This document shows, piece by piece, positions 4,381 through 30,788 of a stretch of 64,000 bases of DNA. The position numbers and the translations under genes were made by a program. The stretch spans positions 2,760,434 to 2,824,433 of the forward strand of contig OZ245840.1 in NCBI GenBank assembly GCA_965228775.1. The letters are read 5' to 3'. The notes beneath the pieces were generated by a model, which was not told the origin of the DNA, did no database searches, and saw only the letters and a program-made list of their open reading frames with translations. Within the stretch, counting starts at the first letter, position 1; every line of letters starts with the position of its first letter. This DNA is from Alphaproteobacteria bacterium (GTDB lineage: Bacteria > Pseudomonadota > Alphaproteobacteria > JANQMY01).

Positions 4381-5292
4381 TTAGAGCAACGACCCTAGCA
4401 GATCTCTGGTCCGCGCACGCTCTTCTTTACTGGGTGCGAATTCCGACGCGGCAAAATCTGTCACACCCACATCAGCCAATTCCGCAAGACCGTCCCGCAC
4501 CTGCGCCTCGTCTCCGGCAATCACCAGATCGCCCGGACCGGAAACACCTTCGCGCTCGAACATGGCCTGATAGGACGGCAAAGACACATAGTTCGACAAT
4601 TCTTTCGAGGCCAGCGCGCGCACGTCATCCGGTTTGTCCGTCACGCAGATCGGCAGCGTCGCGATGATGCGGGGCAGGGGGCGCCCGGCCGCACTGGCGG
4701 CATCGCGGATCGTGGGCACGATATGATCGCGGATGGTGCGCGGGCCCACCCAGGCAAGAGTGGTCCCATCCGCCAGCCGGCCCGCAACGCGCAGCGCTTG
4801 TGGACCAAGGGCCGCCACCACCACCGAACATCTCGCGTCCGGCTTTTTGAACAGCGTGGCCGTGCAGGAGATTTCCTCGCCCTGGAAGTCCACAGTGCCG
4901 TCTTCCAACAGCGGCACAAGCACCGACAAATATTCCTTCAGATGACGGATGGGTTTGCCGTATTCGAGGCCAAGCGGCGCCAGCATGGATTGGTGGGAAA
5001 GGCCAATGCCGAGGGTCAGGCGCCCGCCGATCGTATCATTTGTGGTCAGCGCTTGACCCGCCAGCACCATGGGGTGCCGGGGGTAGGTGGGGATCACCGC
5101 CGTGCCAAGCTCTATGCCGGGCGTGGTTTGCCCCGCCAAGGCCAGCACGGTGAGGGCATCAAACCCGCCGGTAATGTGTTCCGCCAGCCAGTAGCTGGCA
5201 AACCCGTCCGCCGCCGCCCTGGCCACATCGTCCGCCACCCGGTCGGGCGATGCAAACCGGACCAATCCGGTACCGTTGATACCTATTTTCAT
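4381..5292 (-). CDS. LLM-class (luciferase-like) flavin/F420-dependent oxidoreductase
   Basis: 303-aa TIM-barrel luciferase-like pattern (MKIGINGTG..., ...GVTDFAASEF...). Confidence 0.7.
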   Translation of the reverse strand: MKIGINGTGLVRFASPDRVADDVARAAADGFASYWLAEHITGGFDALTVLALAGQTTPGIELGTAVIPTYPRHPMVLAGQALTTNDTIGGRLTLGIGLSHQSMLAPLGLEYGKPIRHLKEYLSVLVPLLEDGTVDFQGEEISCTATLFKKPDARCSVVVAALGPQALRVAGRLADGTTLAWVGPRTIRDHIVPTIRDAASAAGRPLPRIIATLPICVTDKPDDVRALASKELSNYVSLPSYQAMFEREGVSGPGDLVIAGDEAQVRDGLAELADVGVTDFAASEFAPSKEERARTRDLLGSLL

Positions 5293-8379: not shown

Positions 8380-8799
8380 CTATATTTTTTCGATCGTAAA
8401 CGTCGGAATTTGGCGCGGCGCGGCGGTTTTGACGTAACCCGCGAACTGTTCATTTTGTTCGGCCATCTGTGCAACGCGTTTGGCCGCATCCGCCTCCAGC
8501 GCTTCAACGATCCGGCCACGGAAGGTTTCTTCCGCAAGCTCAACCGTAATCTCCGGATTGGCGCGCACATTGTGGACCCATGTGGGATGCTTCTGCGCAC
8601 CCGCATTGGATCCGAACACGCGGCGCGTACCGTCGTCTTCGACGATCAGAACCAGCGGCACTTCCAGCAGGCGCCCGGTCTTCGCGCCGATTGTGTGCAG
8701 AATGACCACGGGCAGGCCGCCAAATTGAGCCACTTTGCCATTATTGGCGCGGAATTCAGCGATGACTTGAGCGTTGAGCGTTTTCCAATCCATGGGCAT
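8380..8799 (-). CDS. Nitroreductase-family deazaflavin-dependent oxidoreductase (DUF385 / PNPOx-like split barrel)
   Basis: Pattern FGGLPVVILHTIGAKTGR...VEDDGTRRVFGSNAGAQKHPTWVHNVRANP is typical of DUF385. AAAGGA lies upstream of the internal ATG. Confidence 0.65.
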   Translation of the reverse strand: MPMDWKTLNAQVIAEFRANNGKVAQFGGLPVVILHTIGAKTGRLLEVPLVLIVEDDGTRRVFGSNAGAQKHPTWVHNVRANPEITVELAEETFRGRIVEALEADAAKRVAQMAEQNEQFAGYVKTAAPRQIPTFTIEKI

Positions 8800-8882: not shown

Positions 8883-10511
8883 TTAAGCGAGGTCGACGCC
8901 GCGATAATGATCCTCTGCGGCTTTTCTCAAATACGATGTGTATTTCGGCCCGGTCCCAAAATAGGCTTGATAGCGCACTTTGCCCACTTCGCGTCCGGCC
9001 ACGTTTGAATTGTAACCGGTGAACCAGCCCTGGCTTCGGCGCAGCAACAGCCCGTCATAGGTCTTCTTGACCACATCCTGCCATTCCTGCTCCGCATCTG
9101 CGTCCGCTTCAATCCGCGTCACGCCGTTTTCGATGGCGTGGCTCACAAGGCCGGTAACCCAATTGACGCCGTTTTCAATGGCGCGGGGATAGTTGGTGGA
9201 ACCGGAAGCGCTTTGCGGGCCGGCCACCATCAACATGTTCGGGAAGCCACGGGTGAGGATACCCAAATAGGTGCTGGGCCCATCGCGCCATTTGTCCGCC
9301 AGCAGATCGCCATTGGTGCCGCGAATGGTCAACCGGTCGAAGGCGCCGGTCACCGCATCGAACCCCGTGGCATAGACGATCACGTCTAGATCGAAATGGC
9401 CTTCGGACGTTTGAATGCCGGTGGGCGTGATGCGCTCGATCGGCGTTTCCGTTATGTCGACGAGCGTTACATTATCTCTGTTGTACACTTCGAAGTAACG
9501 CGTTTCGAGCGGCAAGCGCTGCGTGCCGAAGCCATGGTCTTTCGGGATAAGTTTTTCCGCCACCTCGGGGTCGTGAACGCGCTGGCGAATGCGGTTTGCA
9601 ACATAGTCGGAGATTTCCCGGTTGGCTTCTTCATCGATGAAGATTTCGCGGAAATTCCCTGCAAGCAGCGCGAACCCCGGCGTGTCGTAAAGCTTGTCCC
9701 ACAAAGCGATCCGTTCTTCCTTCGTCACATTCCAGAAGCCCCGCCGGTCAGGCACATGCTCGAAGCCGCCCGGCGATTTCGCGCAATTGGCAAAAATCTC
9801 GTCGTACCGGCTGCGTATATCCGCCATTTCCTCTTTTGAGATTGGCGCATTATTGAGCGGCGTGCTCCAATTCGGACGGCGCTGGAAAACCGTCAGCTCA
9901 CTGACTTTATCCGCAATCTCGGCAATGACTTGAATGCCCGTGGCGCCGGTGCCGACCACACCCACGCGCTTGCCCTCCAGAGAAACCGGTTCCTTCGGCC
10001 ACCAATACGTATGAAACGCCTCACCTTCGAAATCATCCATGCCCTTCAAACGTGGCGGCGTCGGCACGGACAGAACACCGATGCCAGTGATCACGAAACG
10101 GGATCTATACGTCTCACCATTTTCAAGATCGATCTGCCACTGGCGCGCATCTTCATCCCAGGTCATGGCCTGGACGCGTGCGTTAAACCGCATATGGCGC
10201 CGAAGGCTGAACTTGTCAGCCACATAGTTCAGATATCGGAGGTTTTCCGGCTGGGGCGAAAAACGTTCCGTCCAATGCCATTCGTCCAGCACTTCTTGCG
10301 AGAAGGAATAGCCATAGGTGTAGCTTTCGGAATCGAAGCGTGCCCCGGGGTAGCGGTTGCGATACCACGTGCCGCCCAGATCTTCGTCGCCTTCCAGCAC
10401 AATGGCATTCACGCCCAGATCGGTCAGCCGCTTGATTTGATAAATGCCGGCGACGCCCGCCCCGACGACAATGACCTCAAATTCCTGCGTGTCCGCCATA
10501 ATGATACTCAT
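8883..10511 (-). CDS. Baeyer-Villiger (type I flavin-containing) monooxygenase
   Basis: Rossmann motif VVGAGVAGI and the BVMO fingerprint FEGEAFHTYWWP, plus a second GxGxxG (VVGTGATGIQ). The start may be the M5 codon at 10499. Confidence 0.8.
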   Translation of the reverse strand: MSIIMADTQEFEVIVVGAGVAGIYQIKRLTDLGVNAIVLEGDEDLGGTWYRNRYPGARFDSESYTYGYSFSQEVLDEWHWTERFSPQPENLRYLNYVADKFSLRRHMRFNARVQAMTWDEDARQWQIDLENGETYRSRFVITGIGVLSVPTPPRLKGMDDFEGEAFHTYWWPKEPVSLEGKRVGVVGTGATGIQVIAEIADKVSELTVFQRRPNWSTPLNNAPISKEEMADIRSRYDEIFANCAKSPGGFEHVPDRRGFWNVTKEERIALWDKLYDTPGFALLAGNFREIFIDEEANREISDYVANRIRQRVHDPEVAEKLIPKDHGFGTQRLPLETRYFEVYNRDNVTLVDITETPIERITPTGIQTSEGHFDLDVIVYATGFDAVTGAFDRLTIRGTNGDLLADKWRDGPSTYLGILTRGFPNMLMVAGPQSASGSTNYPRAIENGVNWVTGLVSHAIENGVTRIEADADAEQEWQDVVKKTYDGLLLRRSQGWFTGYNSNVAGREVGKVRYQAYFGTGPKYTSYLRKAAEDHYRGVDLA

Positions 10512-16001: not shown

Positions 16002-16246
16002 GGGGTGTTCCTTTTTTCTCTACCTAATAGGGCGCCACGCTTTAGGCAAGCCCCTGCCCACCTTCATGGCGAACGTGCCAGCACGCGAGGTGAACGCCAT
16101 GGCGTCCTAAGCCTCTGATTAAGCTCCTTTGTTTAGACTTATTTACAGAGTCTTAGGGAGAGATGTGGTCGCATATAAGGTGGCGGCGTTTACGATACGC
16201 CGCGGCCAGACCGGCGACAGAGACCGAGCTTGAGAAGTAGAAATCC

Positions 16247-16723
16247 ATGGCGTTAGCGGAAACACTCACGAACTGGGTTGAGACCCAGGCCCAAGGGGGC
16301 GTTGAGCTTGACCCCGATGGGGGCATCCAGTTGTTCGTGGCGGACGAGATGGCCGTTGATATCGGCCCGGCGGATAAGCCGGGGACCTTCGCCATGAGCG
16401 CTGCCGTGGGGGTGCTTCCCGAAAAGGATCGCGTTGCCGTCATGCAGGAACTTCTCATCGCGAATCTTGAGGGGATGGGCACAGGCGGTGCCAGCCTCTC
16501 GATTGATCGTTCGCGCGATGAAATTGTGCTCTGCCGCGTTTATCACACCGATGATCTGACCCCTGACGTTTTTGACGAAGAGTTTAGTGCCTTCGTCAAT
16601 GCGCTGCGGTTTTGGCGCGATCGCCACAAGGCGGGCAAACTTGGCACAGCGCCGACGGACGCGGACATGGAAGATCTTGAATCATTATCGCCGCTGAATG
16701 CGAAAGGCCTGGTTCGCGTTTAA
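16247..16723 (+). CDS. Type III secretion chaperone-like protein (CesT / YbjN superfamily)
   Basis: 158 aa, acidic, with the pattern LFVADEMAVDIGP...FAMSAAVGVLPEKDRVAVMQELLIANL...GASLSIDRSRDEIVLCRVYHTDDL characteristic of the class I chaperone / YbjN fold. No T3SS genes are in the window. Confidence 0.5.
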   Translation: MALAETLTNWVETQAQGGVELDPDGGIQLFVADEMAVDIGPADKPGTFAMSAAVGVLPEKDRVAVMQELLIANLEGMGTGGASLSIDRSRDEIVLCRVYHTDDLTPDVFDEEFSAFVNALRFWRDRHKAGKLGTAPTDADMEDLESLSPLNAKGLVRV

Positions 16724-16765
16724 CGAGGCCAGCGCGTTTAAGAGAATGGAAAGCAGAGGAAACTA

Positions 16766-17563
16766 ATGCCTGAGTGGGTTCAGCTTAACCGAAGTCAATT
16801 GATGCCGGCGGGCGCCGACCAGTCCTCCACCACCAAGGTGGAAGACGAAAAGCCTCTCGTCGAATTCAGGCAATCCAAAACCGGCGACAGGATCGAGTTG
16901 CGGACGCAGGCCCGTATCGACCGCAAACGCGGCGGTTTATTGGGGATTGGCCATGCGCTTTGGCGCAATTTGAAATTAGGCCTGGGAATAGACAGCAAAA
17001 ACACTCAGCGTGAGCAGGCGGAACATCGTTTTGATAAAAGCGTGAATACGCTTGTAGAGGACCTTGCTCAAGGTATCGTCACAAAACGCGACTTCATTGA
17101 TAAGCTCGATGAAATCCGCTCAGCTGCCGCAACGCTTACAGAAACAAGTCCTGACTCTTCCGGGCAAGACGCCAGTCAAAAATATTTTGCTGACAGGTTT
17201 GGTAAAAATCTCTCCCTATGTTTGCTCGCGATCGGAAATCAAAACCCCCTTATGTGCCTGCGGGTCATTGATACTTTAAAGCTGCGCTCTGACGACATGA
17301 AAATGGAAGATTATACTTCAAAGTTCATTCAGAATGCCGCCTTCGAGACGACAATTGACACCAAAGAAATGCGTGCGGATCGTAATACCGCATTCAAAAC
17401 CTATACGGACACAATCGACTCGGTTTTGGCTGAAACAACAAGCATCATGGTACAAGCGTTGGGTCCGCGGCCAGCCGCACAGCCCGCAAACCCGTCCGCA
17501 CAAGGACTTCCTCAAGACGCGCAGGACCCAGGGTTACCCAAGGCGGCCGACCGATCGCGGTGA
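16766..17563 (+). CDS. Hypothetical protein, low GC, effector-like (disordered N- and C-termini, helical core)
   Basis: GAGGA 6 nt upstream of the ATG. Lies 42 bp after the chaperone-like gene. About 50% GC versus 62% for the neighbour. No recognisable domain. Confidence 0.5.
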   Translation: MPEWVQLNRSQLMPAGADQSSTTKVEDEKPLVEFRQSKTGDRIELRTQARIDRKRGGLLGIGHALWRNLKLGLGIDSKNTQREQAEHRFDKSVNTLVEDLAQGIVTKRDFIDKLDEIRSAAATLTETSPDSSGQDASQKYFADRFGKNLSLCLLAIGNQNPLMCLRVIDTLKLRSDDMKMEDYTSKFIQNAAFETTIDTKEMRADRNTAFKTYTDTIDSVLAETTSIMVQALGPRPAAQPANPSAQGLPQDAQDPGLPKAADRSR

Positions 17564-17764
17564 CATACCCGTTCATCAACAGTTGATTTGAAGCTAGGTT
17601 GCGGCCACCGCGCATCAACGCTTCCCCACTCGGCCTTTAGAGCCCGGAGGGACGCGGCGCCCCTCTCTTCAAAACGCCTGTATCGACTTGATCTCACCAC
17701 TTCGGCATGAGACGCTTATAGGTTGAATCCTAGCGATCTACACAAACTTTGATAAACTTAGAGA

Positions 17765-20500
17765 ATGGACCCCGAAGCCCAGGCCAGACTGAAGATAGAC
17801 GAATTGCTCGAAGCGGCTGGTTGGCTCTTGCAGGACCGGCCTGATTTCGATCGTACTGCGGCTTTGGGTGTCGCTGTTCGCGAATTCGCTCTCGGTCAAG
17901 ATCAAGCCGACTATCTGCTTTTCGTAGAGGGCAAAGCCGCTGGCGTTATCGAGGCCAAAAAGGCGGGCATCACCCTCTCAGGTGTCGCCGAGCAATCCGA
18001 TAAATATATGACGCGCCTGCCCGAGCATCTCGCCAAATGGCAGGAATCACTCGTCTTCGATTACGAGAGCACGGGCGAAGAAACCTTGTTCAAGGACATG
18101 CGCGATCCACATCCACGCTCGCGCCGCGTTTTCGCCTTTCATCGCCCGGAAACACTGCTCACATGGCTGAAGGCCGACCAATCTCTACGCACAAAGCTCG
18201 CCCAAATGCCACCGCTTGACCCGACCGGCTTGCGCGATTGCCAAGTCGACGCCATTGAAGGCTTAGAAAAGTCTCTTGCCGAAGCGCGGCCCCGCGCCTT
18301 GATCCAAATGGCAACAGGCGCTGGCAAAACATTTACAGCTTGCTCTTTTTCTTGGCGGCTTCTGAAACATGCTGGCGCAAAACGCATATTGTTTCTGGTC
18401 GACCGCTCTAATCTCGGCCGACAAACCCTCAAAGAATTCCAGGAATTTGAACCAACGGGTGCCGGCCATCTGTTTACAGACATTTACATCACCCAGCTTC
18501 TGCGATCTGCCGGCCTCGATAAAGATGCGAAGGTCGTCATCACCACCATACAGCGCCTCTATTCGATGCTGCGCGGCGAAGAACTAGATGAAACAGTAGA
18601 GGAAAAATCAGGCTTTGAGACATGGGAACAAGAAGACGGCGAAGTCAAACCCGTGCCCTATAACCCAGAAATCCCGATTGAAACTTTTGATGTGATCATC
18701 ACAGATGAATGCCATCGCTCCATCTATGGTCTCTGGCGGCAGGTCCTTGATTATTTTGATGCCTTTATTGTCGGCCTCACCGCGACCCCAACCAAGCACA
18801 CGCTGGGGTTTTTCAACCAAAATCTCGTAGCGGAATATCCTTACGACAGATCGGTGGTCGACAAAGTCAATGTGGGTTTTGAAATTTACCGCATTCGTAC
18901 CCGCGTGGGCGAAAGCGGTGGCGTGATTGATAAGGGCTACCAAGTGCCGGTGCGGGACAAACGCACCCGCACCACCCGCTATCGCGAATTGGACGACGAT
19001 CTTAACTACGCAGCACGGGAACTTGACCGATCCGTCACCGCAAAAAACCAGATCCGCACCGTTCTTGAAGCCTATCGTGCCAGTCTGTTTACAGATCTTT
19101 TTCCGGGCCGCACCGGCGAGTGGGTGCCCAAAACACTGATCTTCGCAAAAGATGATAACCATGCGGAGGAAATTGTCACCTCCGTGCGAGAGGTCTTCGG
19201 CAAAGGAAATGAGTTTGCAAAGAAGATCACCTATAAAACCAGCGAAGATCCTCAAGCGCTGATCAAGGCATTCCGTGTGGATGCCATGCCCCGCATCGCT
19301 GTCACGGTTGATATGATCGCCACAGGCACAGACATTAAGCCCGTCGAAGTTGTTATCTTTATGCGGGATGTGAAATCCGAAGGCTATTTCGAACAAATGA
19401 AAGGGCGGGGTGTGCGCACCATTCGCGATGCGGATTTGGCGCAAGTGACACCCGACGCCAAAACCAAAACCCGTTTCGTGTTGATTGATGCTGTGGGCGT
19501 GACGGAAAGCGCCAAGTCTGCTTCTCAACCCCTAGAGCGCAAACACTACACAGGTTTTGACAAGCTGCTCGAACAAATCGCCCAAGGCAGGCGGGATGAA
19601 GATGCCATATCGTCATTGGCCGGGCGCCTTGCGGCCCTGGATAACAAATTGGACCGCGAAGATCACACCCGCATTACCGAGGCCACAGGCGGCAAAACCT
19701 TGCGTGACCTCGCCAACAGCCTGCTCGATTCCATCGATCCAGACCAAATTGAGGCGAAAGTCGGCCCTGTCGCATCCGAGACTGCACGGAAGGAAGCGGC
19801 AGAACGCCTCCAGGAAGAGGCGTGCAAACCCTTTAACAACCCCGCCACCCGACGCTTGTTGATCGACTTGAAAACCAAAGCCGATATTGTGATTGACGAA
19901 ATCACCACCGATGAAGTTCTCAATGCCAGCTTTGATTTGCGCGAAGCCGAAAAACGCATCACCAGCTTCAAAACCTTCATGGATGAAAATAAGGATGAGC
20001 TGACAGCCCTGCAGATTCTCTACAATCAACCAGTTGGTCGGCAACGATTGACCTACGCCCAATTGAAAGAGCTGGCAGCCCGCTTGTCCGACCCGCCCCA
20101 TTTCTTGACCACAGCAGATGTGTGGCAAGCCTATCGACGGCTGGAAGAAGCCAAAGTGCGCGGGGTGCCCGCCGACAAACTACTGACGGAAATTGTCGCT
20201 TTGGTGCGATTCACCCTGGGGCAAATTGACCTGCTGGAGCCAATTTCCCTTCAAGTGGAACGCCGATTCAATTTATGGATTGGACGACAGAAAAAAGCAG
20301 GTGTGGCCTACACACCGGAACAGATGGAATGGCTCATGCTCATCCGGGATCATATAGCCGCCAATGCGGAAATCGCAGCTGGGGACCTCATGCAAAACCC
20401 CGCCTTTGCGGATCGCGGCGGCGTGGTCAAAGCGCGCGAATTGTTCGGGACGAGCCTAACAAACCTGCTGGATGACCTCACCAAGGCACTGGTCGCGTGA
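17765..20500 (+). CDS. hsdR: Type I restriction enzyme R subunit (HsdR)
   Basis: HsdR-like N-terminus, helicase motif I QMATGAGKT, DEAH box IITDECHRS, and later helicase motifs. The stop overlaps the hsdS start. Confidence 0.85.
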   Translation: MDPEAQARLKIDELLEAAGWLLQDRPDFDRTAALGVAVREFALGQDQADYLLFVEGKAAGVIEAKKAGITLSGVAEQSDKYMTRLPEHLAKWQESLVFDYESTGEETLFKDMRDPHPRSRRVFAFHRPETLLTWLKADQSLRTKLAQMPPLDPTGLRDCQVDAIEGLEKSLAEARPRALIQMATGAGKTFTACSFSWRLLKHAGAKRILFLVDRSNLGRQTLKEFQEFEPTGAGHLFTDIYITQLLRSAGLDKDAKVVITTIQRLYSMLRGEELDETVEEKSGFETWEQEDGEVKPVPYNPEIPIETFDVIITDECHRSIYGLWRQVLDYFDAFIVGLTATPTKHTLGFFNQNLVAEYPYDRSVVDKVNVGFEIYRIRTRVGESGGVIDKGYQVPVRDKRTRTTRYRELDDDLNYAARELDRSVTAKNQIRTVLEAYRASLFTDLFPGRTGEWVPKTLIFAKDDNHAEEIVTSVREVFGKGNEFAKKITYKTSEDPQALIKAFRVDAMPRIAVTVDMIATGTDIKPVEVVIFMRDVKSEGYFEQMKGRGVRTIRDADLAQVTPDAKTKTRFVLIDAVGVTESAKSASQPLERKHYTGFDKLLEQIAQGRRDEDAISSLAGRLAALDNKLDREDHTRITEATGGKTLRDLANSLLDSIDPDQIEAKVGPVASETARKEAAERLQEEACKPFNNPATRRLLIDLKTKADIVIDEITTDEVLNASFDLREAEKRITSFKTFMDENKDELTALQILYNQPVGRQRLTYAQLKELAARLSDPPHFLTTADVWQAYRRLEEAKVRGVPADKLLTEIVALVRFTLGQIDLLEPISLQVERRFNLWIGRQKKAGVAYTPEQMEWLMLIRDHIAANAEIAAGDLMQNPAFADRGGVVKARELFGTSLTNLLDDLTKALVA

Positions 20501-22083
20501 GTGAGGCAAGCACGACACTTCCCATTGAGTTTTCTGAATCAGTAGTTTCACAAGAAACCACACCCGTCGGCTGGACTACAGCCAATTTAGGAGAAGTCGG
20601 CGTTTGGACTGGTGGCGGCACACCGAGCAAACGTAACGACGCCTTCTGGATCAACGGCAAAATCCCATGGATCTCCCCGAAAGACATGAAGTCCTTTGAG
20701 ATCTCACGCAGTCAAGATTTTATAACTGGCGAGGCGATTGAAAAATCATCGGCCAAGCTAATCAAGGCAAGTTCCGTTTTGATGGTAACGAGATCGGGAA
20801 TCTTGCAACACACCTTTCCTGTAGGAGTGAATAGTATCGAGGTCGCGGTCAATCAGGATTTAAAGGCAATCACTCCTCACACCGGCATAAATGAGAAGTA
20901 CGTTGCGTGGTACCTAGTTGCCAACAACAATAAAATACTCGCCAACTGTTCTAAAGACGGCACTACCGTACAGAGCGTCGACACAGATCAGCTTAAGTCT
21001 CTTCAAATACCAATAGCTCCGCATAAAGAACAAAATCGCATCGTTTCGAAGATCGACGAACTCTTCAGCGACATCGAAGCCGGAGAGCGGGCATTGGCGC
21101 GGGCGCGGGTTGCGTTGGAACGCTATCGCAAATCTGTCTTGAAAGCAGCTGTAATCGGCGAACTCACCAAAGACTGGCGTGAGGCAAACAAAAACAAGCT
21201 GGAACCCGCCGACAAATTGCTCGAACGCATTCTTGCTGCCCGCCGCACCGCTTGGGAAGAAGCCGAACTGGCCAAAATGAAAGCCAAAGGCAAAACACCC
21301 AAAGACGATAAATGGAAGAAGAAATACAAGCCACCCGAAGATCCTGTATTTAGCTTTCTCAGGATCGTTCCGAATGAATGGGCAGCCGGACGAATTGACC
21401 TATTCGGAGAGGTCCAACTCGGTCGTCAACGAGCACCAAAACACCACACTGGTGATCACATGCGTCCCTACCTTCGTGTTGCAAATGTCTTTGAAGAGAG
21501 AATTGACACGAGCGATGTGAAAGAAATGAACTTCACTCCTAAAGAGTATGAAAACTATAAACTCCATAGAGGTGACATTTTGTTGAACGAAGGGCAAAGC
21601 GCTGAATTGGTTGGACGCCCAGCGATCTACAATGATGAGGTACCTGGCGCCTGTTTTACCAACACGCTCGTCCGCTACAGAGTATTTGAAAATCTGACCG
21701 TCGACTTCGCAATGCTCCTGTTTCGGCATTTTATGCACTCGGGTCATTTTACAAAAATCGCAAGAATTACCACAAACATCGCACACCTTGGTACAGACAG
21801 ATTCGCCTCCATGAAGATTCCATGTCCATCAGCACCTGAACAGTTAGAAATTGTTTCGCGGGCAACTGAAGCATTTAGCAAAACCAATCACATCGAAGCA
21901 GCACTCGATAAACAAGAACGCAAGTCCAAGGCGCTTCGTCAATCCATTTTGAAATCGGCCTTTGAAGGACGCCTCGTTCCCCAAGACATCAGTGATGAAC
22001 CAGCCAGCGTTCTTCTAGAACGTCTAAAACAGAACGCAAAACCCATTACAAAGAACAAGAAGAAAAGAAAGAACACCAAGTGA
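20497..22083 (+). CDS. hsdS: Type I restriction-modification specificity subunit (HsdS), two target-recognition domains
   Basis: AT-rich gene with two TRD-like halves separated and followed by conserved coiled-coil repeats (LERYRKSVLKAAVIGELT... / LRQSILKSAFEGRLV). Overlaps both neighbours by 4 nt. Confidence 0.8.
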   Translation: MSEASTTLPIEFSESVVSQETTPVGWTTANLGEVGVWTGGGTPSKRNDAFWINGKIPWISPKDMKSFEISRSQDFITGEAIEKSSAKLIKASSVLMVTRSGILQHTFPVGVNSIEVAVNQDLKAITPHTGINEKYVAWYLVANNNKILANCSKDGTTVQSVDTDQLKSLQIPIAPHKEQNRIVSKIDELFSDIEAGERALARARVALERYRKSVLKAAVIGELTKDWREANKNKLEPADKLLERILAARRTAWEEAELAKMKAKGKTPKDDKWKKKYKPPEDPVFSFLRIVPNEWAAGRIDLFGEVQLGRQRAPKHHTGDHMRPYLRVANVFEERIDTSDVKEMNFTPKEYENYKLHRGDILLNEGQSAELVGRPAIYNDEVPGACFTNTLVRYRVFENLTVDFAMLLFRHFMHSGHFTKIARITTNIAHLGTDRFASMKIPCPSAPEQLEIVSRATEAFSKTNHIEAALDKQERKSKALRQSILKSAFEGRLVPQDISDEPASVLLERLKQNAKPITKNKKKRKNTK

Positions 22084-23525
22084 CCCGACACGATGATCTT
22101 GTTGCCAAGGTTTGGAACTATGCCCATGTGCTGCGGGACCAAGGTGTGTCTTATGGGGATTATGTAGAGCAGATCACCTATCTGCTGTTCCTAAAAATGG
22201 ATCAGGAGCGAGATGAATATCTCGGCGAACCTTCCGAAATTCCAGCAAAGTACCGATGGGCCGAATTGGCAGCCCTGGACGGGGAAGAGCTGGAAGCCAC
22301 CTATCGCAAAGCGCTTGAAACACTCGCAAAATCTGGCGGACTAATCGGCACACTGTTTAAGGGCGCGCAGAACAAATTGTCCGACCCGGCAAAACTGAAA
22401 CGCGTTGTCTCTCTCATCGACAAAGAAACATGGATTGGCCTGGATGTGGACACGAAAGGCGAAATCTATGAGGGGCTGTTGGAACGCAATGCGTCGGAGG
22501 TGAAGTCCGGCGCTGGGCAATATTTCACACCACGCCCGATCATCGACGCGGCGGTGCGCTGCATCGACCCGAAAATTAGCGAAACAGTGCATGACCCTGC
22601 CTGCGGTACGGGCGGCTTTTTGTTGGCGGCTTATGAACACATGAAACCGCAGGTGCAGGCCGACCGCAGCTTGGTCAAACAACTGCGCGAGGAAACCTTT
22701 ACCGGCGCCGATATCGTGCCGGAAGTGGTGCGCCTTGCCGCCATGAACCTGTACCTTCACGGCATCGGTAATGGCGCGAGCCCCATTGAGCGGCGGGATG
22801 CGTTGTCCGAAGCCTATGGCCGCTATGACCTGATCCTCACCAATCCGCCGTTCGGCAAGAAGTCGAGCTACAAGGTCATCGGCGAAGGCGGCGAAGTGAC
22901 GACCGAGCAAGAGACCTATGAGCGCGACGATTTCAAATACACAACGTCGAACAAGCAACTTAACTTTTTGCAGCACATCATGACCATTCTAAATGTGAAT
23001 GGCCGGGCAGCCGTGGTGCTGCCCGACAATGTGTTGTTCGAAGCAGGGAACGCGGGCGAGGGCATTCGCAAGCGCTTGCTGCAGCAATTTGACTTTCACA
23101 CCTTGCTGCGGCTGCCCACCGGCATTTTTTACAAACAGGGCGTCAAAGCGAATGTCTTGTTTTTCGACAAACGCCTGGCCAGCGAAACGCCGTGGACAAA
23201 AGCCTTGTGGATTTATGATTTCCGTACGAATAAACGATTCACGCTGAAAAAGAACACTCTGGGCAAAGCGGATATGGAAGATTTCGTGACCTGCTATCAG
23301 CCTGGCAATATCGGGAAGCGCAAAGAGACGGAACGGTTTCGGTGTTTTTCTTACGAAAACCTCGTCGCGCGGGACAAAACCAATCTGGATATTTTCTGGC
23401 TAAAGGATGATGACCTAGAAGATGTGGACAGCCTGCCACCGCCGGAAGACCTGGCTGCCGAAATCGTGGAAAACCTCCAAGAGGCGCTGGCACACTTCCA
23501 AGAGGTGGCGGACGAGCTGGCCTGA
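22080..23525 (+). CDS. hsdM: Type I restriction-modification DNA methyltransferase (HsdM), N6-adenine
   Basis: HsdM N-terminal domain (YAHVLRDQGVSYGDYVEQITYLLFLKM), SAM motif DPACGTGGFL and catalytic NPPFG. Confidence 0.85.
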   Translation: MTRHDDLVAKVWNYAHVLRDQGVSYGDYVEQITYLLFLKMDQERDEYLGEPSEIPAKYRWAELAALDGEELEATYRKALETLAKSGGLIGTLFKGAQNKLSDPAKLKRVVSLIDKETWIGLDVDTKGEIYEGLLERNASEVKSGAGQYFTPRPIIDAAVRCIDPKISETVHDPACGTGGFLLAAYEHMKPQVQADRSLVKQLREETFTGADIVPEVVRLAAMNLYLHGIGNGASPIERRDALSEAYGRYDLILTNPPFGKKSSYKVIGEGGEVTTEQETYERDDFKYTTSNKQLNFLQHIMTILNVNGRAAVVLPDNVLFEAGNAGEGIRKRLLQQFDFHTLLRLPTGIFYKQGVKANVLFFDKRLASETPWTKALWIYDFRTNKRFTLKKNTLGKADMEDFVTCYQPGNIGKRKETERFRCFSYENLVARDKTNLDIFWLKDDDLEDVDSLPPPEDLAAEIVENLQEALAHFQEVADELA

Positions 23526-23870
23526 CCAAACAATGCCGTGGGCCGTTTACACTCAAATGTGATATAAGGTTGGTTTAAGAGGCGAGGCGGCCAGTACCGA
23601 CTTTGGGGGGCCGCTGTTTGAGATGTGAATAGGTTGGTTGAAGCGCTCTTGTCAGGCGAACGCATGCGTTCAGCTTCGCCTTGACAGGGGTAGTTGATCC
23701 CAAAAATTGGATGAACCCCATGCGCCCATGCTCACGCCCATAGATGAGGCGAAGCGGGCACCACCGATTCCCCGGTGACGGGTGCGGATGATTTTTCCAA
23801 AGGCGCCAGATTTCCGCCCGCCGAATCGGCCTAAGCTTCGGCCTTCATCTTAGGAAAAGGGGTCTTTGCC

Positions 23871-24803: not shown

Positions 24804-24938
24804 TCAGCGCGCGTTCGTTGACAAGAACACCAGCACGCCGATTTCCACCAGGTCCGAAAACCCGGGAACGAAAAGCAACGCCAGCGGCAGAGCAACGGTG
24901 ATGCCGGCACAGAGATAGAGATAGTTCTTAGTGGTCAT
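24804..24938 (-). CDS. Possible 44-aa small membrane peptide (MTTKNYLYLCAGITVALPLALLFVPGFSDLVEIGVLVFLSTNAR)
   Basis: Hand-translated; below the ORF-track length cutoff. Hydrophobic, co-oriented with neighbours. Confidence 0.25.
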   Translation of the reverse strand: MTTKNYLYLCAGITVALPLALLFVPGFSDLVEIGVLVFLSTNAR

Positions 24939-24962
24939 CGGTCTGTTTCCTCGTTATCGCCG

Positions 24963-25496
24963 TTACCGGGGGGCCATTTCGAAAATCCAGGTTTCGCCTT
25001 CGGCCACGGATTTTTCGATTTCCGCGATAGCACCGGGCGTGGCACCGCCTGCATATTTCTGCGCAAGCTTGGCCGCGACACCGGCGATGACCGCCGGGTC
25101 GGTCACGCGGATCAGCCGCCGCTCGTAGCGGATGCCTTCAATGCGCGCGACGGCCAGGCCGTCGCCCGCTTCCGCCTGAAAGGCCCAGTCTTTCCAGAGG
25201 CGGCCGAGGAAGGATTTCATGTAGCCCGACGGCACATAGACCTTGCCGCCGCTTTCCATGATGAAAATCCGGCGCGACGCCAGCGGGTCTTCCAACTGCA
25301 ATTCGATGGTGACGATATCGTCGGTGAAGCGCCAATCGGGCTCCGGGCCTGTGTACAAGTCGCCCGACACCAGCTTGCCGCCGGGAAAGAGAATGGATGG
25401 ACCATCGGCATTGGCATTTTCCAGGCGCAGCGTCGCGAAGGCCACCGCCGGGATCAGTACCAAAAGGCCCAAGATTTGAAGTATGACACGTATCAC
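24963..25496 (-). CDS. Hypothetical membrane-anchored protein (signal-anchor plus periplasmic domain), GTG start
   Basis: GGGGAGGG 6 nt upstream of the GTG at 25494-25496 (VIRVILQILGLLVLIPAVAF...). The longer 231-aa track ORF has no ribosome-binding site. A truncated paralogous 5' end is found at 30229-30306. Confidence 0.5.
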   Translation of the reverse strand: MIRVILQILGLLVLIPAVAFATLRLENANADGPSILFPGGKLVSGDLYTGPEPDWRFTDDIVTIELQLEDPLASRRIFIMESGGKVYVPSGYMKSFLGRLWKDWAFQAEAGDGLAVARIEGIRYERRLIRVTDPAVIAGVAAKLAQKYAGGATPGAIAEIEKSVAEGETWIFEMAPR

Positions 25497-25684
25497 CTGT
25501 TCGCCCTCCCCTGTTTTGCTGAAGCGTAGCGTTAATGGCGGATGTCGTCGATTGAAAGTTGAGGCGGCGCTACGTCGAAGACACGCGCAAATTCGCCGGT
25601 TTCCTGCAAAATCCGAGCGGGCTGGGGCGTAGTGCCGGTGAAGGATTGGGCCGGGCAAGCGCTTTGTGATAATAGGTCAGCGTT

Positions 25685-25957
25685 ATGAGCTATGATGTGG
25701 GTCCGGGCGATTTGGTACTGTGCGTGAATGTGGCGCCGAACCACATGACGGGCGAGCCCGTGCCTTTGGTCGCGGGAGAAACCTACCGGGTCTTGGATGT
25801 CTTCCCCTTCGCGTGCCCATGCGGCCGGTCCGACGCGCTGCTGGATGTGGGCGTCGACTTCGCCTGGTGCCAGACGCGCTTCCGGCTTCTGCCAAAGCCC
25901 CGGGCCGAGTCCAAGCCACGCCGCGTCTCGGCGCCAAAAGAAACCGAAAAAGTGTGA
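25685..25957 (+). CDS. Hypothetical small protein (90 aa)
   Basis: The only support is GC-rich third-position bias; the ribosome-binding site is weak. Confidence 0.3.
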   Translation: MSYDVGPGDLVLCVNVAPNHMTGEPVPLVAGETYRVLDVFPFACPCGRSDALLDVGVDFAWCQTRFRLLPKPRAESKPRRVSAPKETEKV

Positions 25958-25989
25958 CGGCCAGCCGGTAGGGGCTGTGTTCCCAAGCC

Positions 25990-28755
25990 TTACCCGTCGG
26001 CCCTGGCGCTCTCAATTTTGATGATCACTTCGTTTTCATCAAGCTCTTCCGTCCTGACGATGACGTCACCGCTGCTGGACATGTCGCTTGTCGCGCCGTT
26101 CTCGGCACCGTCCGCGTCGTACAGTCCTGTTTGGTCGACAGACTCCTCTGGCGCGTCTCTTAAAGCGGCCTGTAGAGGATTGAACGCCCCATCAGACCCG
26201 CCTGCCGTGACACCACCGGCGGCATGGGGTGGGGCGTATTCATCAAGCTGATCGACCGAGTCCTCTGGCCCGACCGCCAAGTTGCCGCCCGCCACATCGT
26301 CCGGCTTCTCTTCGATTACGTTTGGAACGGAGCTTTTAGACCCCAATTTTAAGACATCGTTACTCTCTTTGTCCGAACGGGCGTTATCCACTTCCTCATG
26401 GATCTTGTCGAAAGCCTCGGCTTCATTGAATTGCTCCATGAACGCGGCCAAGTTAAACGCCCTCGATTCTCGGAAGTCCTTACCGCCAGGCTTGCCTATA
26501 TAGAGGTCCATATCGTCCGCTTCATTTACGTCAATGTTATCGACAAAGTCTGCGAACGGCCCTTCCAAATAGTCGTCTCTGATGGCATCAGCTGGATCGA
26601 ACGTCACCGACGGCCTGAAATCTCTGCCAGAATAATTTGGGCCGAAGTCCGCAAGGCCCCCGCCTATGGCGACATCAGCGCCCTCGCTGCCATCTTCGGA
26701 ACCACCTGCCGTGACGCCGTGCCCGGCTGAGGGCTGAGCATTTACATCCTCTTCATCGACCGGTTCCAAGACATTGCTAACTGAAGGATCAACTAACACT
26801 CCAGTCTCAGAGTACTCTGCCTGCATCGACCCGAAAGATTTTTCCCGCACCAATTGTCCCATTGCAGCCTGTGCATGATGGCGGTTAGGCACGCTCATCA
26901 GCGCCGGGTAGTGAAGAAGCAAGAGCGCGATGCGCTGCTCTCTTAATTCCTCCAGTTGCGTATCAATGTCAGTATTGTGGACTTCGCCGAGTATTTTTTG
27001 GCGGCGCTTTATCGTACGGGCAAGGTAGTCGTTATCTTCGATCGCTTGCTTGACCTGTTTTCGAAACTCAAAAACCTGCCTTCTCTCATGCTTATCTCGT
27101 TCCTTGGGGCCTTTTTTGACCAGCCCCTCATATTTGGCCCAGTCATCTTTAATTTTGAGAGTTCTCTCATTGTGATCGTTTATGACGCTTTCAAAACCGC
27201 TTTGACCGGTTGAATCCGCCTGGAACAATATGTGCGGCGTAGCCATCGTCTGTTGGAGCCCTTTGTTTATGCGGGATCCAAAATTGCTTTCACCCCGCCG
27301 CTTCGGCATCTCAGACAAACTAACCAGGAGAGGGGGTGGCTGTTGTGTTTTGTACTTGGCGGTCTGCACCGGAGAACAAAATGCTTTCGCCAAATCGAGC
27401 GTTTCCAGGCAAAAATCCTCCGCGATTCCATAGGTCTTCCAAACGGCATCGCTGGGCGTGACGCGGCGCTTGCCATCTTCATCTCTGTGCAGATCAAAAA
27501 GCGCCGCCACGGCCTTATCCATGTCCTTGGCATTCTTGACCAGCGCATCGTATATGAACCGCCGTTTATCGATGTGCGTTAAATCATCCGGATAGGACAA
27601 CTTTTCCAACTGACCAAGAAGGCGCTTATTCTCTTGCGCAACATTCTGGATTTGCGCCATCAGGTTCGTGCATTCCTGCTGGAACGTCTGCGCGCCAAAA
27701 GCCCCTAACTGGCTTTGAAGTTTCCTTTCTTCAGCGGTGTCAAACAACTTCCCTTCTTGCTCAAGAAGCTCCGTCCAAACAGTGGAAAGGCGCTCTGCAC
27801 TGGCTCTAATGGTTTCCGGAAGACGCGCGTCGCGTATCACCGCTGCGGTTCTGCTCGGCCAAATTTTCCGGCTTTGTAGTGTTTCGCGGACCTTTTCAGC
27901 GTTCGTCTCAGACATGCCACCGTTAATGTAGGTTTTTTCCTGGCGGCTTTTTACATTGATTGATTGATTGTCTCGGTTTCCGTTGTTTGCCGTTTCTATA
28001 AAGCACGTCCGATGCCCTACATTGCGGAGTACGGTTTGCGCGAGCTGCACAGCGTCTTTCTGAATCCCTTCTTTGTTCAGTACGTAAGCCACTTTTCCAA
28101 GTTCTTTGGAACGCGTACGCAGATAGTCATCGCAAATAGCCTGGCAGAGATTATCGGTCTCTGCGACCATCACCTTCTCGGTTTTTCTGCCATGCATATA
28201 GCGCACGCTCGGTGACCACTGGTGATGCGCGGCTTCAGCCCCCCTGCCCATGTATGTTTCCAGCCGTTCTTGAAGCGTACCAAGATCCTGAATGCGAAGC
28301 TCTAGCTTGGCGGCTCTGGCCTCTACCCTTCGGCGAAGTTCACCCTCTTCTAGATCTGCGCCGCCCGGCTCATTACGAATTTCGTTTCGCGCACGTTCCG
28401 TCAGCACTTCATCGACGACAAACTCCCCGATCGGCTTATTGAGTTTGTTTTCCTCATGGTCAGGGACTTGATAGTCATAGCCAAAGTTGATGCAACGGGC
28501 GATGTCCTCGCGCGCGCCCAAAAACTTCTTACCGCGCAACCAAACGCCGCTGCCGAACATTGTGTTATTGCTCGTGTTCCTGATGCCGTCCTTCGCATAA
28601 AGGCCTTTTTCCGCCGTCCAGCGCAATGCAGAGTTCTTGCTGAGACCGCCCTCCTTCGCCTTGCTTTCCAGTTCCTGTTTAATTTGCGAGAAGGTCTTCC
28701 CAGTTGTTTGGACACCATCTGTCTTTGCCGGACCAATTCTGAAGGAAAGTTTCAT
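25990..28755 (-). CDS. Large hypothetical protein (about 921 aa). N-terminal half is lower-GC and helical; C-terminal roughly 300 aa is highly acidic, GC-rich and low-complexity, with repeated GVTAGGS[E/D]DG motifs
   Basis: AGGAG 9 nt upstream of the ATG at 28755 (MKLSFRIGPAKTDGVQTTGK...). No confident domain match by eye. The N-terminus is faintly reminiscent of relaxase motif I (xRIxPxxGxxTxxQIxxxLE), but the catalytic Tyr and His triad are not evident. Confidence 0.6.
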   Translation of the reverse strand: MKLSFRIGPAKTDGVQTTGKTFSQIKQELESKAKEGGLSKNSALRWTAEKGLYAKDGIRNTSNNTMFGSGVWLRGKKFLGAREDIARCINFGYDYQVPDHEENKLNKPIGEFVVDEVLTERARNEIRNEPGGADLEEGELRRRVEARAAKLELRIQDLGTLQERLETYMGRGAEAAHHQWSPSVRYMHGRKTEKVMVAETDNLCQAICDDYLRTRSKELGKVAYVLNKEGIQKDAVQLAQTVLRNVGHRTCFIETANNGNRDNQSINVKSRQEKTYINGGMSETNAEKVRETLQSRKIWPSRTAAVIRDARLPETIRASAERLSTVWTELLEQEGKLFDTAEERKLQSQLGAFGAQTFQQECTNLMAQIQNVAQENKRLLGQLEKLSYPDDLTHIDKRRFIYDALVKNAKDMDKAVAALFDLHRDEDGKRRVTPSDAVWKTYGIAEDFCLETLDLAKAFCSPVQTAKYKTQQPPPLLVSLSEMPKRRGESNFGSRINKGLQQTMATPHILFQADSTGQSGFESVINDHNERTLKIKDDWAKYEGLVKKGPKERDKHERRQVFEFRKQVKQAIEDNDYLARTIKRRQKILGEVHNTDIDTQLEELREQRIALLLLHYPALMSVPNRHHAQAAMGQLVREKSFGSMQAEYSETGVLVDPSVSNVLEPVDEEDVNAQPSAGHGVTAGGSEDGSEGADVAIGGGLADFGPNYSGRDFRPSVTFDPADAIRDDYLEGPFADFVDNIDVNEADDMDLYIGKPGGKDFRESRAFNLAAFMEQFNEAEAFDKIHEEVDNARSDKESNDVLKLGSKSSVPNVIEEKPDDVAGGNLAVGPEDSVDQLDEYAPPHAAGGVTAGGSDGAFNPLQAALRDAPEESVDQTGLYDADGAENGATSDMSSSGDVIVRTEELDENEVIIKIESARADG

Positions 28756-29221
28756 TACAAGGACTCCTGGATACAATTCTGTTTGCGGCGGACACATCGC
28801 ACGTGGTTAGGAAATCGCTCCCATGATCGGCGAATCCCGTTAGAATTTTCTCTGGATTGATTGCATGACAGTCTCACGCGAACGAATTCGCCGCGATTCG
28901 CGGCGCGACGAACGATGAGGCAAGACGGGCCAGCTATTGGTCCAGTGGACCAATCACGCCTTTAGCCGCCCAGGACCCTAAAGCGTTCCGGGCTGTCTCC
29001 TTCTTTCCATGCTCACGCGTCGCAAGATTGAGAGGGATTGCAGCGTATCTGCGGCATTTCACCAAACACGCCAAAGAGCAGAATTGGTTCGCTGTACACT
29101 GAGTTTTACATTTCCCTTTTGCCAAGCCGAAGGATTGAAAAGGAACTCGGTTCGGCCTAGGGCGAAACTCTCGTCGCAAAATTGATGATTTCCGGCACCC
29201 AGATGATGCGTCTAAAGAGGG

Positions 29222-30001
29222 TCAACCAGCCTCGTCGTAAGCGGGCACATCATCTTTCAATAACCGGTCCACAATTGAAGCCGGAAGAACACGAGCTAAT
29301 TGGGCCAGCTTCGCCATACGCCAAGGGAAGAAGTATTCTGATTTCCCTTTCTTCATGGCCTTAACGATGTGCGCGGCACCTGCTTCTTCCGAGATTTCGT
29401 TGGGGGCGGGCATCCCGTCGTTTGCGGTCGCTTCGGTTGCGACAAAACCCGGGTAAATCGTTATGAATTTGATCCCGAACTCTGCAAACTCTAACCGACA
29501 TGTATCCAGCAACAGTTTGGCCGCCCCTTTGCCTGCGCAATACGGCCCTTGAAGCGGAACGCCGATCAGTCCAGCCAGCGAATTGGTGTGGACAACACAA
29601 CCGCTTTTTCGCCGCTTCATATGTTCGAGCGTGGGAAACAAATAATTGACGACGATATCATAGTTGGATCGCATAAACGCTTTGACGTCACCCGCCGACA
29701 TATGACGCATGTCGAGCGCGGGCGCCCCACCGGCGTTCAAAAGAAGAGTGTCGATTACTCCGAACTTCTCTAGCGTTTTTTCGACCACATCGGCCGCTGC
29801 CTCTTCTTGCATCGCATCAGCCGCAAAGAAGCAGGACTCGCCGCCTGCGGCGTTAATCTCCTGACACAGCTCGGCAAGCTTTTCCGAACGCCGCGCGGTC
29901 AGCGCCAGCTTTGCTCCTTCGGCACCGAGCTGTTTGGCAACCAATCGTCCCATACCTGAAGACGCGCCAACGATCAGAACCGACCTTCCTGCAAAATTCA
30001 T
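29222..30001 (-). CDS. SDR-family oxidoreductase (short-chain dehydrogenase/reductase)
   Basis: GGAGG 11 nt upstream of the ATG at 30001 (MNFAGRSVLIVGASSGMGR). TGxxxGxG cofactor motif, NAG motif (LLLNAGG) and catalytic YxxxK (YCAGKGAAK). Confidence 0.8.
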   Translation of the reverse strand: MNFAGRSVLIVGASSGMGRLVAKQLGAEGAKLALTARRSEKLAELCQEINAAGGESCFFAADAMQEEAAADVVEKTLEKFGVIDTLLLNAGGAPALDMRHMSAGDVKAFMRSNYDIVVNYLFPTLEHMKRRKSGCVVHTNSLAGLIGVPLQGPYCAGKGAAKLLLDTCRLEFAEFGIKFITIYPGFVATEATANDGMPAPNEISEEAGAAHIVKAMKKGKSEYFFPWRMAKLAQLARVLPASIVDRLLKDDVPAYDEAG

Positions 30002-30037
30002 ATCCAGACAGCCTCCATGCACTGCTCGCACACTCTA

Positions 30038-30097
30038 TTACGATAGTATTGGCTATCTTTTTTCAGATTACAATAGTATTCGCTATATTTTTTTATC
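30038..30097. repeat. Two tandem imperfect 30-bp AT-rich direct repeats (TTACGATAGTATTGGCTATCTTTTTTCAGA / TTACAATAGTATTCGCTATATTTTTTTATC)
   Basis: Seen directly, immediately upstream of the SDR start. Confidence 0.5.
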
Positions 30098-30228
30098 AAG
30101 CACCCGACGAATCCATGCGAGCTTTGATGGTCCGCTCGGCGAGTATGACGAAAGTAGCTTCACCTCTTTGATCAACGCTCGGAAGCACTGATTTTATGTG
30201 GGCAGTTACAACACGAAATTTGCGTGCT

Positions 30229-30306
30229 CCAGGCGCAGCGTCGCGTAGGTGACCGCCGGGATCAGCATCAACAGGCCGATGATTTGAAGGATTATTCGGA
30301 TCAATT
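30229..30306 (-). pseudogene. Truncated paralogous copy of the 5' end (about 28 codons plus ribosome-binding site) of gene 24963-25496; reading frame ends after LIRIILQIIGLLMLIPAVTYATLRLEHAN-FVL*
   Basis: About 80% nucleotide identity over roughly 100 bp between 25421-25520 and 30229-30330, including the GGGGAG site. Similarity stops abruptly at 30229. Confidence 0.5.
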
Positions 30307-30413
30307 GTCCGAACTCCCCTTTTTCGCCGGAGAGTAGCCGCGTTCAGCGCCTCTCTCGATCAAGCGTTGATGACATGATGGCCCGGAGGCGGTGCGATTT
30401 CGTTGGTTTTCGG

Positions 30414-30433
30414 TGAAATCTGGAGCGGGCGAT
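30414..30433. repeat. 20-bp direct repeat (GAAATCTGGAGCGGGCGATG) duplicating the 3' end of tRNA-Gly (second copy at 30524-30543); att-site-like scar
   Basis: Exact 20-bp identity seen directly, 110 bp from the tRNA 3' end. Confidence 0.45.
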
Positions 30434-30531
30434 GGGGTGAGGCGGGTGAGCGGTTGGCCCGGGGCACCAATCGACCGCCGAACGAACCCAGGACGCGATC
30501 CTTGGCAACCACCGGAAAGGTTTTAGAAATC

Positions 30532-30606
30532 TGGAGCGGGCGATGAGATTCGAACTCACGACCCCAACCTTGGCAAGGTTGTGCTCTACCCCTGAGCTAC
30601 GCCCGC
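30532..30606 (-). tRNA. tRNA-Gly (anticodon GCC), CCA encoded
   Basis: Hand-folded cloverleaf: acceptor GCGGGCG/CGCCCGC, D-arm GCTC-AGGGGTA-GAGC, anticodon stem CAACC/GGTTG with loop TTGCCAA, T-arm GTGAG-TTCGAAT-CTCAT, discriminator T, CCA. Confidence 0.9.
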
Positions 30607-30715: not shown

Positions 30716-30788
30716 CCATCCCACTCCCCCGGCCCAGCCACCCGTTCCAGGGTACCCTTGGGGTGGTTGGGCCGGGGGAGTGGGATGG
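30716..30788. repeat. REP-like palindromic element, family copy 1 (CCATCCCACTCCCCCGGCCCAGCCACCC...GGGTGGTTGGGCCGGGGGAGTGGGATGG)
   Basis: Long near-perfect inverted repeat; related copies at about 41086-41155 and 42256-42326. Confidence 0.6.

Follow-up and report, generated by a model that had tools for sequence, protein, structure and literature searches.

The only tRNA gene in the 64-kb window (the whole stretch of DNA that was analysed) is an intact tRNA-Gly(GCC) of 75 nt with its CCA encoded, at 30532–30606 on the minus strand (ARAGORN; Rfam tRNA, 68.5 bits). It is followed by a second, partial copy of a tRNA-Gly 3' half, and this copy is probably the fossil att scar of one or more lost tyrosine-recombinase elements. 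Under this explanation an element, or a chain of elements, would once have integrated into tRNA-Gly(GCC), regenerating the gene and leaving a same-orientation partial 3' copy on the element's far side; later deletion of the element body would have left 91 bp between two cores, with short remnants of the arms. We class the feature as the scar of an island-type event and not as an island, and as one of an ordinary, already known kind, with no new element, mechanism or family involved. Displaced tDNA fragments (attR) of tRNA-integrated islands and prophages have been mapped by Islander (PMC4383910), 'partial tRNA genes' have been described (PMC9897764), and partial tRNA copies derived from integrative elements are both pervasive and well documented (PMC4383910, PMC9897764).

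A first-pass annotation of this DNA had reported a 20-mer repeated exactly near tRNA-Gly(GCC), and the repeat is real: GAAATCTGGAGCGGGCGATG occurs exactly twice in the window, at 30415–30434 and 30526–30545, both on the plus strand and 111 nt apart from start to start. The interval between the copies, given as about 90 bp, measures 91 bp, and the coordinates first assigned to them (30414–30433 and 30524–30543) were off by 1 and 2 nt. With an expected count of 0.02, two matches were seen in 0/100 shuffles, and there is no third copy in the 64-kb window even at 3 mismatches. Chance similarity, or an artefact of assembly, is hardly credible as a source of the arrangement: besides the shuffles, a collinear second tRNA fragment in the spacer provides independent support, and the contig from which the encoded proteins are recorded is 5.3 Mb long, as would be expected of a finished assembly.

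In the orientation of the tRNA the repeated sequence reads CATCGCCCGCTCCA, corresponding to tRNA nt 62–75 (the last 3 nt of the T stem, the acceptor 3' strand of 7 nt, the discriminator base and CCA), and then the 6-nt trailer GATTTC. One copy had correctly been placed over the 3' end and CCA of the tRNA on the opposite strand: the proximal copy (30526–30545, minus strand; an attL-like core) comprises nt 62–75 of the minus-strand gene with its GATTTC trailer. Proceeding away from the gene on the same strand, there follow 17 unique nucleotides, TAAAACCTTTCCGGTGG, which match nothing elsewhere (30509–30525, between the trailer and the next feature); a decayed tRNA-Gly fragment of 26 nt, TTGCCAAGGATCGCGTCCTGGGTTCG, representing nt 31–56 (30483–30508); about 46 nt of unique sequence (30437–30482), standing in place of T-loop nt 57–59 of the partial copy, with no homologue, Rfam match or significant fold; and a distal fragment (30415–30436) made up of tRNA nt 60–75 (CC then CATCGCCCGCTCCA) and GATTTC, the 20 nt of which at 30415–30434 are identical to the proximal copy. 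The layout can be summarised as an intact tRNA, 23 nt, one partial 3' half with its T loop split by about 46 nt, and GATTTC. Beyond it a unique 76-bp stretch (30339–30414, minus strand) separates the distal fragment from a truncated copy of a protein gene, here called gene X. This stretch starts ACCGAAAACC, and after GATTTC the proximal trailer starts TAAAACC; the two trailers have GATTTC in common, and then AAAACC after a 1- versus 4-nt difference, the stretch being elsewhere dissimilar to the spacer.

The decayed fragment at 30483–30508 agrees with nt 31–56 of the resident tRNA at 21/26 positions (local alignment score 32), a score reached by 0/2000 dinucleotide shuffles, and a scan of the region from 14 to 31 kb (17 kb, both strands) found only this fragment and the distal 14-mer above background. 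The nt 31–56 fragment and then the nt 62–75 fragment lie on the tRNA's own strand in collinear tRNA order; as the pieces covering nt 31–56 and nt 60–75 share both strand and order, they constitute one partial tRNA 3' half. Across 49 alphaproteobacterial loci, the control orientations and positions contain about 0.023 fragments per kb that score at least 28, so that two such fragments within 111 nt are very unlikely to have arisen by chance. [quoted passage not shown] Here the tRNA homology begins at nt 31, the first anticodon-loop base, and the perfect block at nt 62, 3 nt short of the point where the T stem meets the acceptor stem, so the boundaries of the partial copy correspond to recognised subsites A and J (PMC4383910).

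A partial 3' half could also be what is left of a second, tandem tRNA-Gly(GCC) gene that decayed and lost its 5' half, a history for which Pseudochrobactrum (L075) offers a starting point: at the same locus it has a tandem pair of complete tRNA-Gly(GCC) genes with 296 bp between them. Only 23 nt precede nt 31 in the window, however, and they are dissimilar to tRNA nt 1–30, on which count a tandem tRNA pair with a pseudogene was rejected; the nearest relatives carry a single gene, and the T-stem allele of the partial copy differs from that of the resident gene. We regard this history as improbable. An age gap between the decayed fragment and the perfect 20-mer (5/26 versus 0/20 mismatches) was likewise considered and set aside, the hypergeometric p of about 0.05 being too weak.

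The allele carried by the partial copy bears on where it came from. The distal copy reads CC at nt 60–61, against CT in the resident gene, and nt 51 is G in the decayed fragment but A in the resident gene; G51 pairs with C61 in the T stem of the partial copy, a compensatory change with respect to the resident A51–T61 pair. Among 21 tRNA-Gly(GCC) alleles from related loci, the best fit is GTGGG/CCCAT (L009, a Roseibium, with L031 and L061), with 22/26 matches to the decayed fragment and an unbroken match of 16 nt to the distal one, compared with 21/26 and 14 contiguous nt for the resident allele. The G51–C61 pair is found in alleles of Roseibium, Rhodobium and Cohaesibacter, and A51–T61 is common to this genome and its nearest relatives, with the resident tRNA-Gly(GCC) 100% identical in L081, L083 and L085. 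Because the G51–C61 pair matches non-resident alleles, the sequence is suggestive of a partial copy of foreign origin and not a fresh duplicate of the resident gene, the signal being two paired positions noticed post hoc with a chance p of about 0.05 by rough estimate. A foreign copy might have arrived on the attP arm of an element, or within a composite island as one of its internal att sites. Since the GATTTC trailer also stands 3' of tRNA-Gly in L009 and L023, identity over these six additional bases is no independent sign of a recent repeat.

The main rival requires no recombinase: slippage or unequal crossing-over would have duplicated the DNA from nt 31 to about 23 nt past the gene, and the duplicate would then have decayed and gained some 46 nt of inserted sequence. 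At the corresponding locus of a Hyphomicrobiales MAG (L024), nt 50–75 and the trailer form a true tandem duplication of three units with a 109-nt period, which means that recombinase-independent duplication is possible at this spot, and the two cases are alike in tRNA, locus, orientation and spacing (111 nt here versus 109 nt). The GATTTC and AAAACC that both trailers contain, and the failure to find an integrase, also favour local duplication. In L024, however, the whole unit with its trailer repeats (A-B-A-B, 97% matches), whereas in the window only the tRNA-derived parts recur, in an allele that differs from the resident gene. Furthermore, the sequence past the distal copy is dissimilar to the spacer beyond a few bases and TRF finds no array; the compensatory G51–C61 pair is absent from the resident gene and present in other natural alleles; and a start at the first anticodon-loop base would be a chance coincidence. 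All told, we hold local duplication to be rather unlikely, and the scar of a lost element to be the better account. Rejected candidates at the locus include an A-B-A-B tandem duplication in the window (post-distal sequence against spacer scored 17, and 64/500 shuffles scored as high) and a 111-nt tandem array (none reported by TRF in the window, with L024 scoring 400 as the positive control). The three tRNA-Gly 3' fragments of L024 (nt 50–75) occupy 4860–5140 of that locus with a period of 109–140 nt.

Identity of the 20-mer between its copies, together with the presence of GATTTC 3' of tRNA-Gly in L009 and L023, might also reflect selection on a functional RNA or regulatory element, for example a 3'-processing or termination signal or a tRNA-like small RNA. 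The arrangement is absent from the nearest relatives, however, and searches of the spacer with Rfam, by folding (no better than shuffled sequence, z = 0.30) and for terminator-like or promoter-like sites all came back blank; a structured RNA, terminator or promoter in the spacer was rejected accordingly, and selective maintenance of this kind appears very improbable. Beyond these, the 91 bp hold no ORF, integrase or cargo.

Evidence of an active integration module was equally wanting. Neither an integrase nor a recognisable remnant of one was found: Pfam detected no PF00589 integrase among the long ORFs at 1–49 kb, the range covered, and tblastn of the whole window with the integrase of L023 (one P4-type query) returned nothing below E = 0.4. 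A third att copy at the far end of the variable region was sought in the 14–31 kb range and none was found there. Viral contigs contained 0 matches to the attL-type junction or the 20-mer, and when the region was compared by BLAST with plasmids and phages, the tRNA-Gly and SDR (short-chain dehydrogenase) genes alone gave matches; none of these collections yielded a matching attP.

Set beside the islands mapped by Islander, the locus has an intact tDNA and a cognate fragment in direct orientation on the same replicon, and a fragment boundary at a recognised crossover subsite; the interval of 91 bp contains no tyrosine integrase (PF00589) and is not an island-sized interval with cargo (PMC4383910). 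The likeness to an Islander attR thus lies in an intact tRNA followed downstream by a same-orientation 3' copy with its boundaries at crossover subsites (PMC4383910), and in the islands that occupy this locus in other Alphaproteobacteria (L023, L010 and L009); the differences are that there is neither integrase nor island body, that the interval is 91 bp where islands span kilobases, and that about 46 nt interrupt the fragment, which has also decayed in part. Islander's integrase filter would discard such a scar. A second point of comparison is provided by CIMEs, remnants of integrative elements that are flanked by att sites and lack integration and transfer genes (PMC6323972). Like them, the feature has att-like direct repeats around an interval with no recombinase, and it may have originated through a deletion inside one integrated element or through the accretion of a number of them; unlike CIMEs, it has lost all but 91 bp, whereas CIMEs keep genes and intact, functional attL and attR.

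Comparison with related loci drew on a genome-collection scan with the thioredoxin-TPR neighbour (best identity 61%), the loci from which were used for synteny and tRNA alleles, and on a protein search that retrieved closer relatives (L081–L088; YbaK identity 74–91%), several of whose contigs stop before the tRNA 3' end. On its 5' side the tRNA adjoins conserved core genes, among them those for a YbaK-like tRNA-editing domain protein, a thioredoxin-TPR protein and a protein with a Lon N-terminal domain; most of the alphaproteobacterial loci that were compared keep them in synteny with tRNA-Gly(GCC). Beyond the 3' end the genes differ in each lineage: homology to L081, the nearest retrievable relative (YbaK 84%), ends at the last tRNA base, where L081 continues with an APH-family (phosphotransferase) gene, and homology to L083 (YbaK 76%) ends 7 nt past the tRNA 3' end. 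Synteny breaks are to be expected anyway at 76–84% YbaK identity. The nearest relatives, within that range, have a single tRNA-Gly gene, no distal copy and other downstream genes. For 5.8 kb from the tRNA to an 80-aa ORF that is common to L081, GC is 0.50–0.56, against about 0.58–0.62 in the flanks; that the DNA beyond the tRNA is lower in GC and accessory in content counts in favour of a scar.

More distant relatives demonstrate that islands do use this locus. At the syntenic tRNA-Gly of L023 an 8.1-kb island is bounded by a same-orientation copy of roughly nt 28–75 and encodes an Arm-DNA-bind_3/Phage_integrase protein; L010 has two integrase-less islets bounded by three copies, of which one carries a TIR-domain gene and the other a LysR gene; and in L009 an islet of 3.5 kb terminates in a copy of nt 35–75 and GATTTC. 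Over the 49 loci, fragments scoring at least 40 number 7 downstream in the same orientation, versus 0, 2 and 1 in the control classes, which is the bias expected of att remnants. The first-pass annotation had looked to related strains for an empty site or a larger island with an integrase: distant relatives yielded repeat-bounded islands, one with an integrase (L023), and no retrieved relative (nearest YbaK 76–84%) showed an empty or filled site between the 20-mers. Opposite-orientation 5' fragments (nt 1–27) were also seen in L010, at about 200–2500, several kilobases downstream of tRNA-Gly.

Taken with the collinear fragment, the subsites, the allele, the islands elsewhere and the loss of homology to the nearest relatives at or within 7 nt of the tRNA 3' end, the att-site scar proposed in the first-pass annotation stands as the best explanation, tempered by the missing integrase and by the possibility of a duplication of the L024 type. 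A recombinase origin of the repeat is what we infer from these, and the sequence of events may have taken one of two forms. In the first, the crossover would have occurred near the T/acceptor junction, with the 20-mer as the shared core and the decayed fragment and 46 nt as a degenerate tRNA-like P arm; in the second, a donor-derived internal att site would have come with a composite island. An empty site would read from the tRNA directly into GATTTCACCGAAAACC (also given as GATTTCACCGAAAACCAACG), and the attP of such an element would consist of the 46-nt arm, CCCATCGCCCGCTCCAGATTTC and the 17-nt arm, in that order. The predicted empty-site junction, CGCTCCAGATTTCACCGAAAACC, had 0 matches in metagenome contigs. 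Among the points against a scar are that there is no integrase in the searched range, that only 91 bp lie between the repeats, and that about 46 nt interrupt the T loop.

Such a scar is probably inert today. There is a slim chance that the partial tRNA copy is instead a still-functional secondary att site, a minimal CIME-like landing pad for an integrase acting in trans. Were this so, the integrase would be encoded elsewhere in the 5.3-Mb genome, and integrase-less cargo (a candidate type III effector, the SDR and the gene-X module) would have been accreted, and be mobilisable, through the partial copy.

The adjoining 4.8-kb segment of anomalous sequence had been linked to the tRNA repeat, a link that is unsupported as stated: the segment starts 76 bp past the distal tRNA copy, and its own repeats are 5' ends of a protein gene, not of tRNA origin. 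Away from the tRNA, the order is the scar, a truncated 5' fragment of gene X, the SDR, a 935-aa ORFan, a 90-aa gene, gene X and a 44-aa ORF. The repeats are imperfect direct repeats of 121 nt and 78% identity, both on the minus strand, comprising the region upstream of gene X and its first 31 codons: copy A (25410–25530) is the 5' region of the intact gene X, and copy B (30218–30338) comprises the upstream region and 31 codons of a truncated second gene X, followed by a stop. Between them lies cargo of lower GC (25531–30217, minus strand) with no integrase, including the SDR (29222–30031, minus), the 935-aa ORFan (25990–28797, minus) and the 90-aa gene (25685–25957, plus). Intact gene X (24963–25496, minus) encodes 177 aa with an N-terminal TM helix and no Pfam domain, and its partner is a conserved 44-aa membrane ORF (24804–24938, minus).

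The segment resembles what remains where an island gives its target gene a new 5' end and leaves the old one stranded. Islands specific to dusA act in this way, integrating into a protein gene at its 5' end and bringing a substitute for that end with them (PMC4482086); the segment is similar in that its cargo separates gene X, which is intact, from a truncated copy left stranded, with imperfect direct repeats, and dissimilar in having no integrase and in its 121-nt repeats at 78%, which are not a short semiconserved core. Two xenologous copies of gene X, one of them truncated, explain the pattern equally.

Gene X was considered as a regular neighbour of tRNA-Gly in relatives and rejected as such, since its module with the 44-aa ORF sits elsewhere, in three unrelated neighbourhoods, in L089, L091 and L093, the last of which is from the same assembly as the nearest relative L081. 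Homologues of the module (24804–25496) at 70–86% identity are widespread in marine metagenomes, many with source names in Gammaproteobacteria/Pseudomonadales; the gene-X product has a 99%-identical counterpart (P0121), and a conserved ATCGA...TAC motif lies upstream of the module. The 935-aa ORFan has no Pfam domain, and its sole non-self homologue among 5.8 billion proteins is P0242, from a TARA ocean scaffold (L090 10001–13954), with 45% identity over 68% of the query. The neighbours of P0242 are SopD-family and CesT chaperone genes, and the ORFan may be a type III secretion effector. At the DNA level the 90-aa ORF is 77% identical to L083 2553–2828, where no gene is called, and the changes fall mostly at third positions; the ORF is probably a genuine small gene. 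Directly upstream of the SDR start codon at 30031, an AT-rich tandem repeat of 30 bp at 30037–30093 (1.9 copies, 88% matches) may be regulatory.

For the wider genome, a scar would mean that tRNA-Gly(GCC) has served as an integration site in this uncharacterised marine alphaproteobacterium, and would flag as accessory DNA the roughly 5.8 kb beyond the tRNA and a separate insert of 7.9 kb. Its significance is small beyond annotation, for which it carries a warning: 30415–30508 is a tRNA fragment and not a gene.

The separate insert is a 7.86-kb block at 16004–23865, where L081 has only a 97-bp YajQ–DUF1993 intergenic region. It contains genes for a CesT-family chaperone (16247–16723), a 265-aa ORF with no Pfam domain (16766–17563) and a type I restriction-modification system (hsdR/S/M, 17765–23525), with GC down to 0.45; its flanks have no convincing repeats, the only sequence that they share being the 9-mer ATATAAGGT. 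On the other side of the tRNA, between tRNA-Gly and the ybaK-like gene, a palindrome at 30716–30788 has 28-nt arms that are 96% complementary around a 17-nt loop. It is a member of a dispersed, REP/MITE-like repeat family, other copies of which lie in L081 at 8618–8692, 9872–9940 and 20288–20371, and also in L083 and L085.
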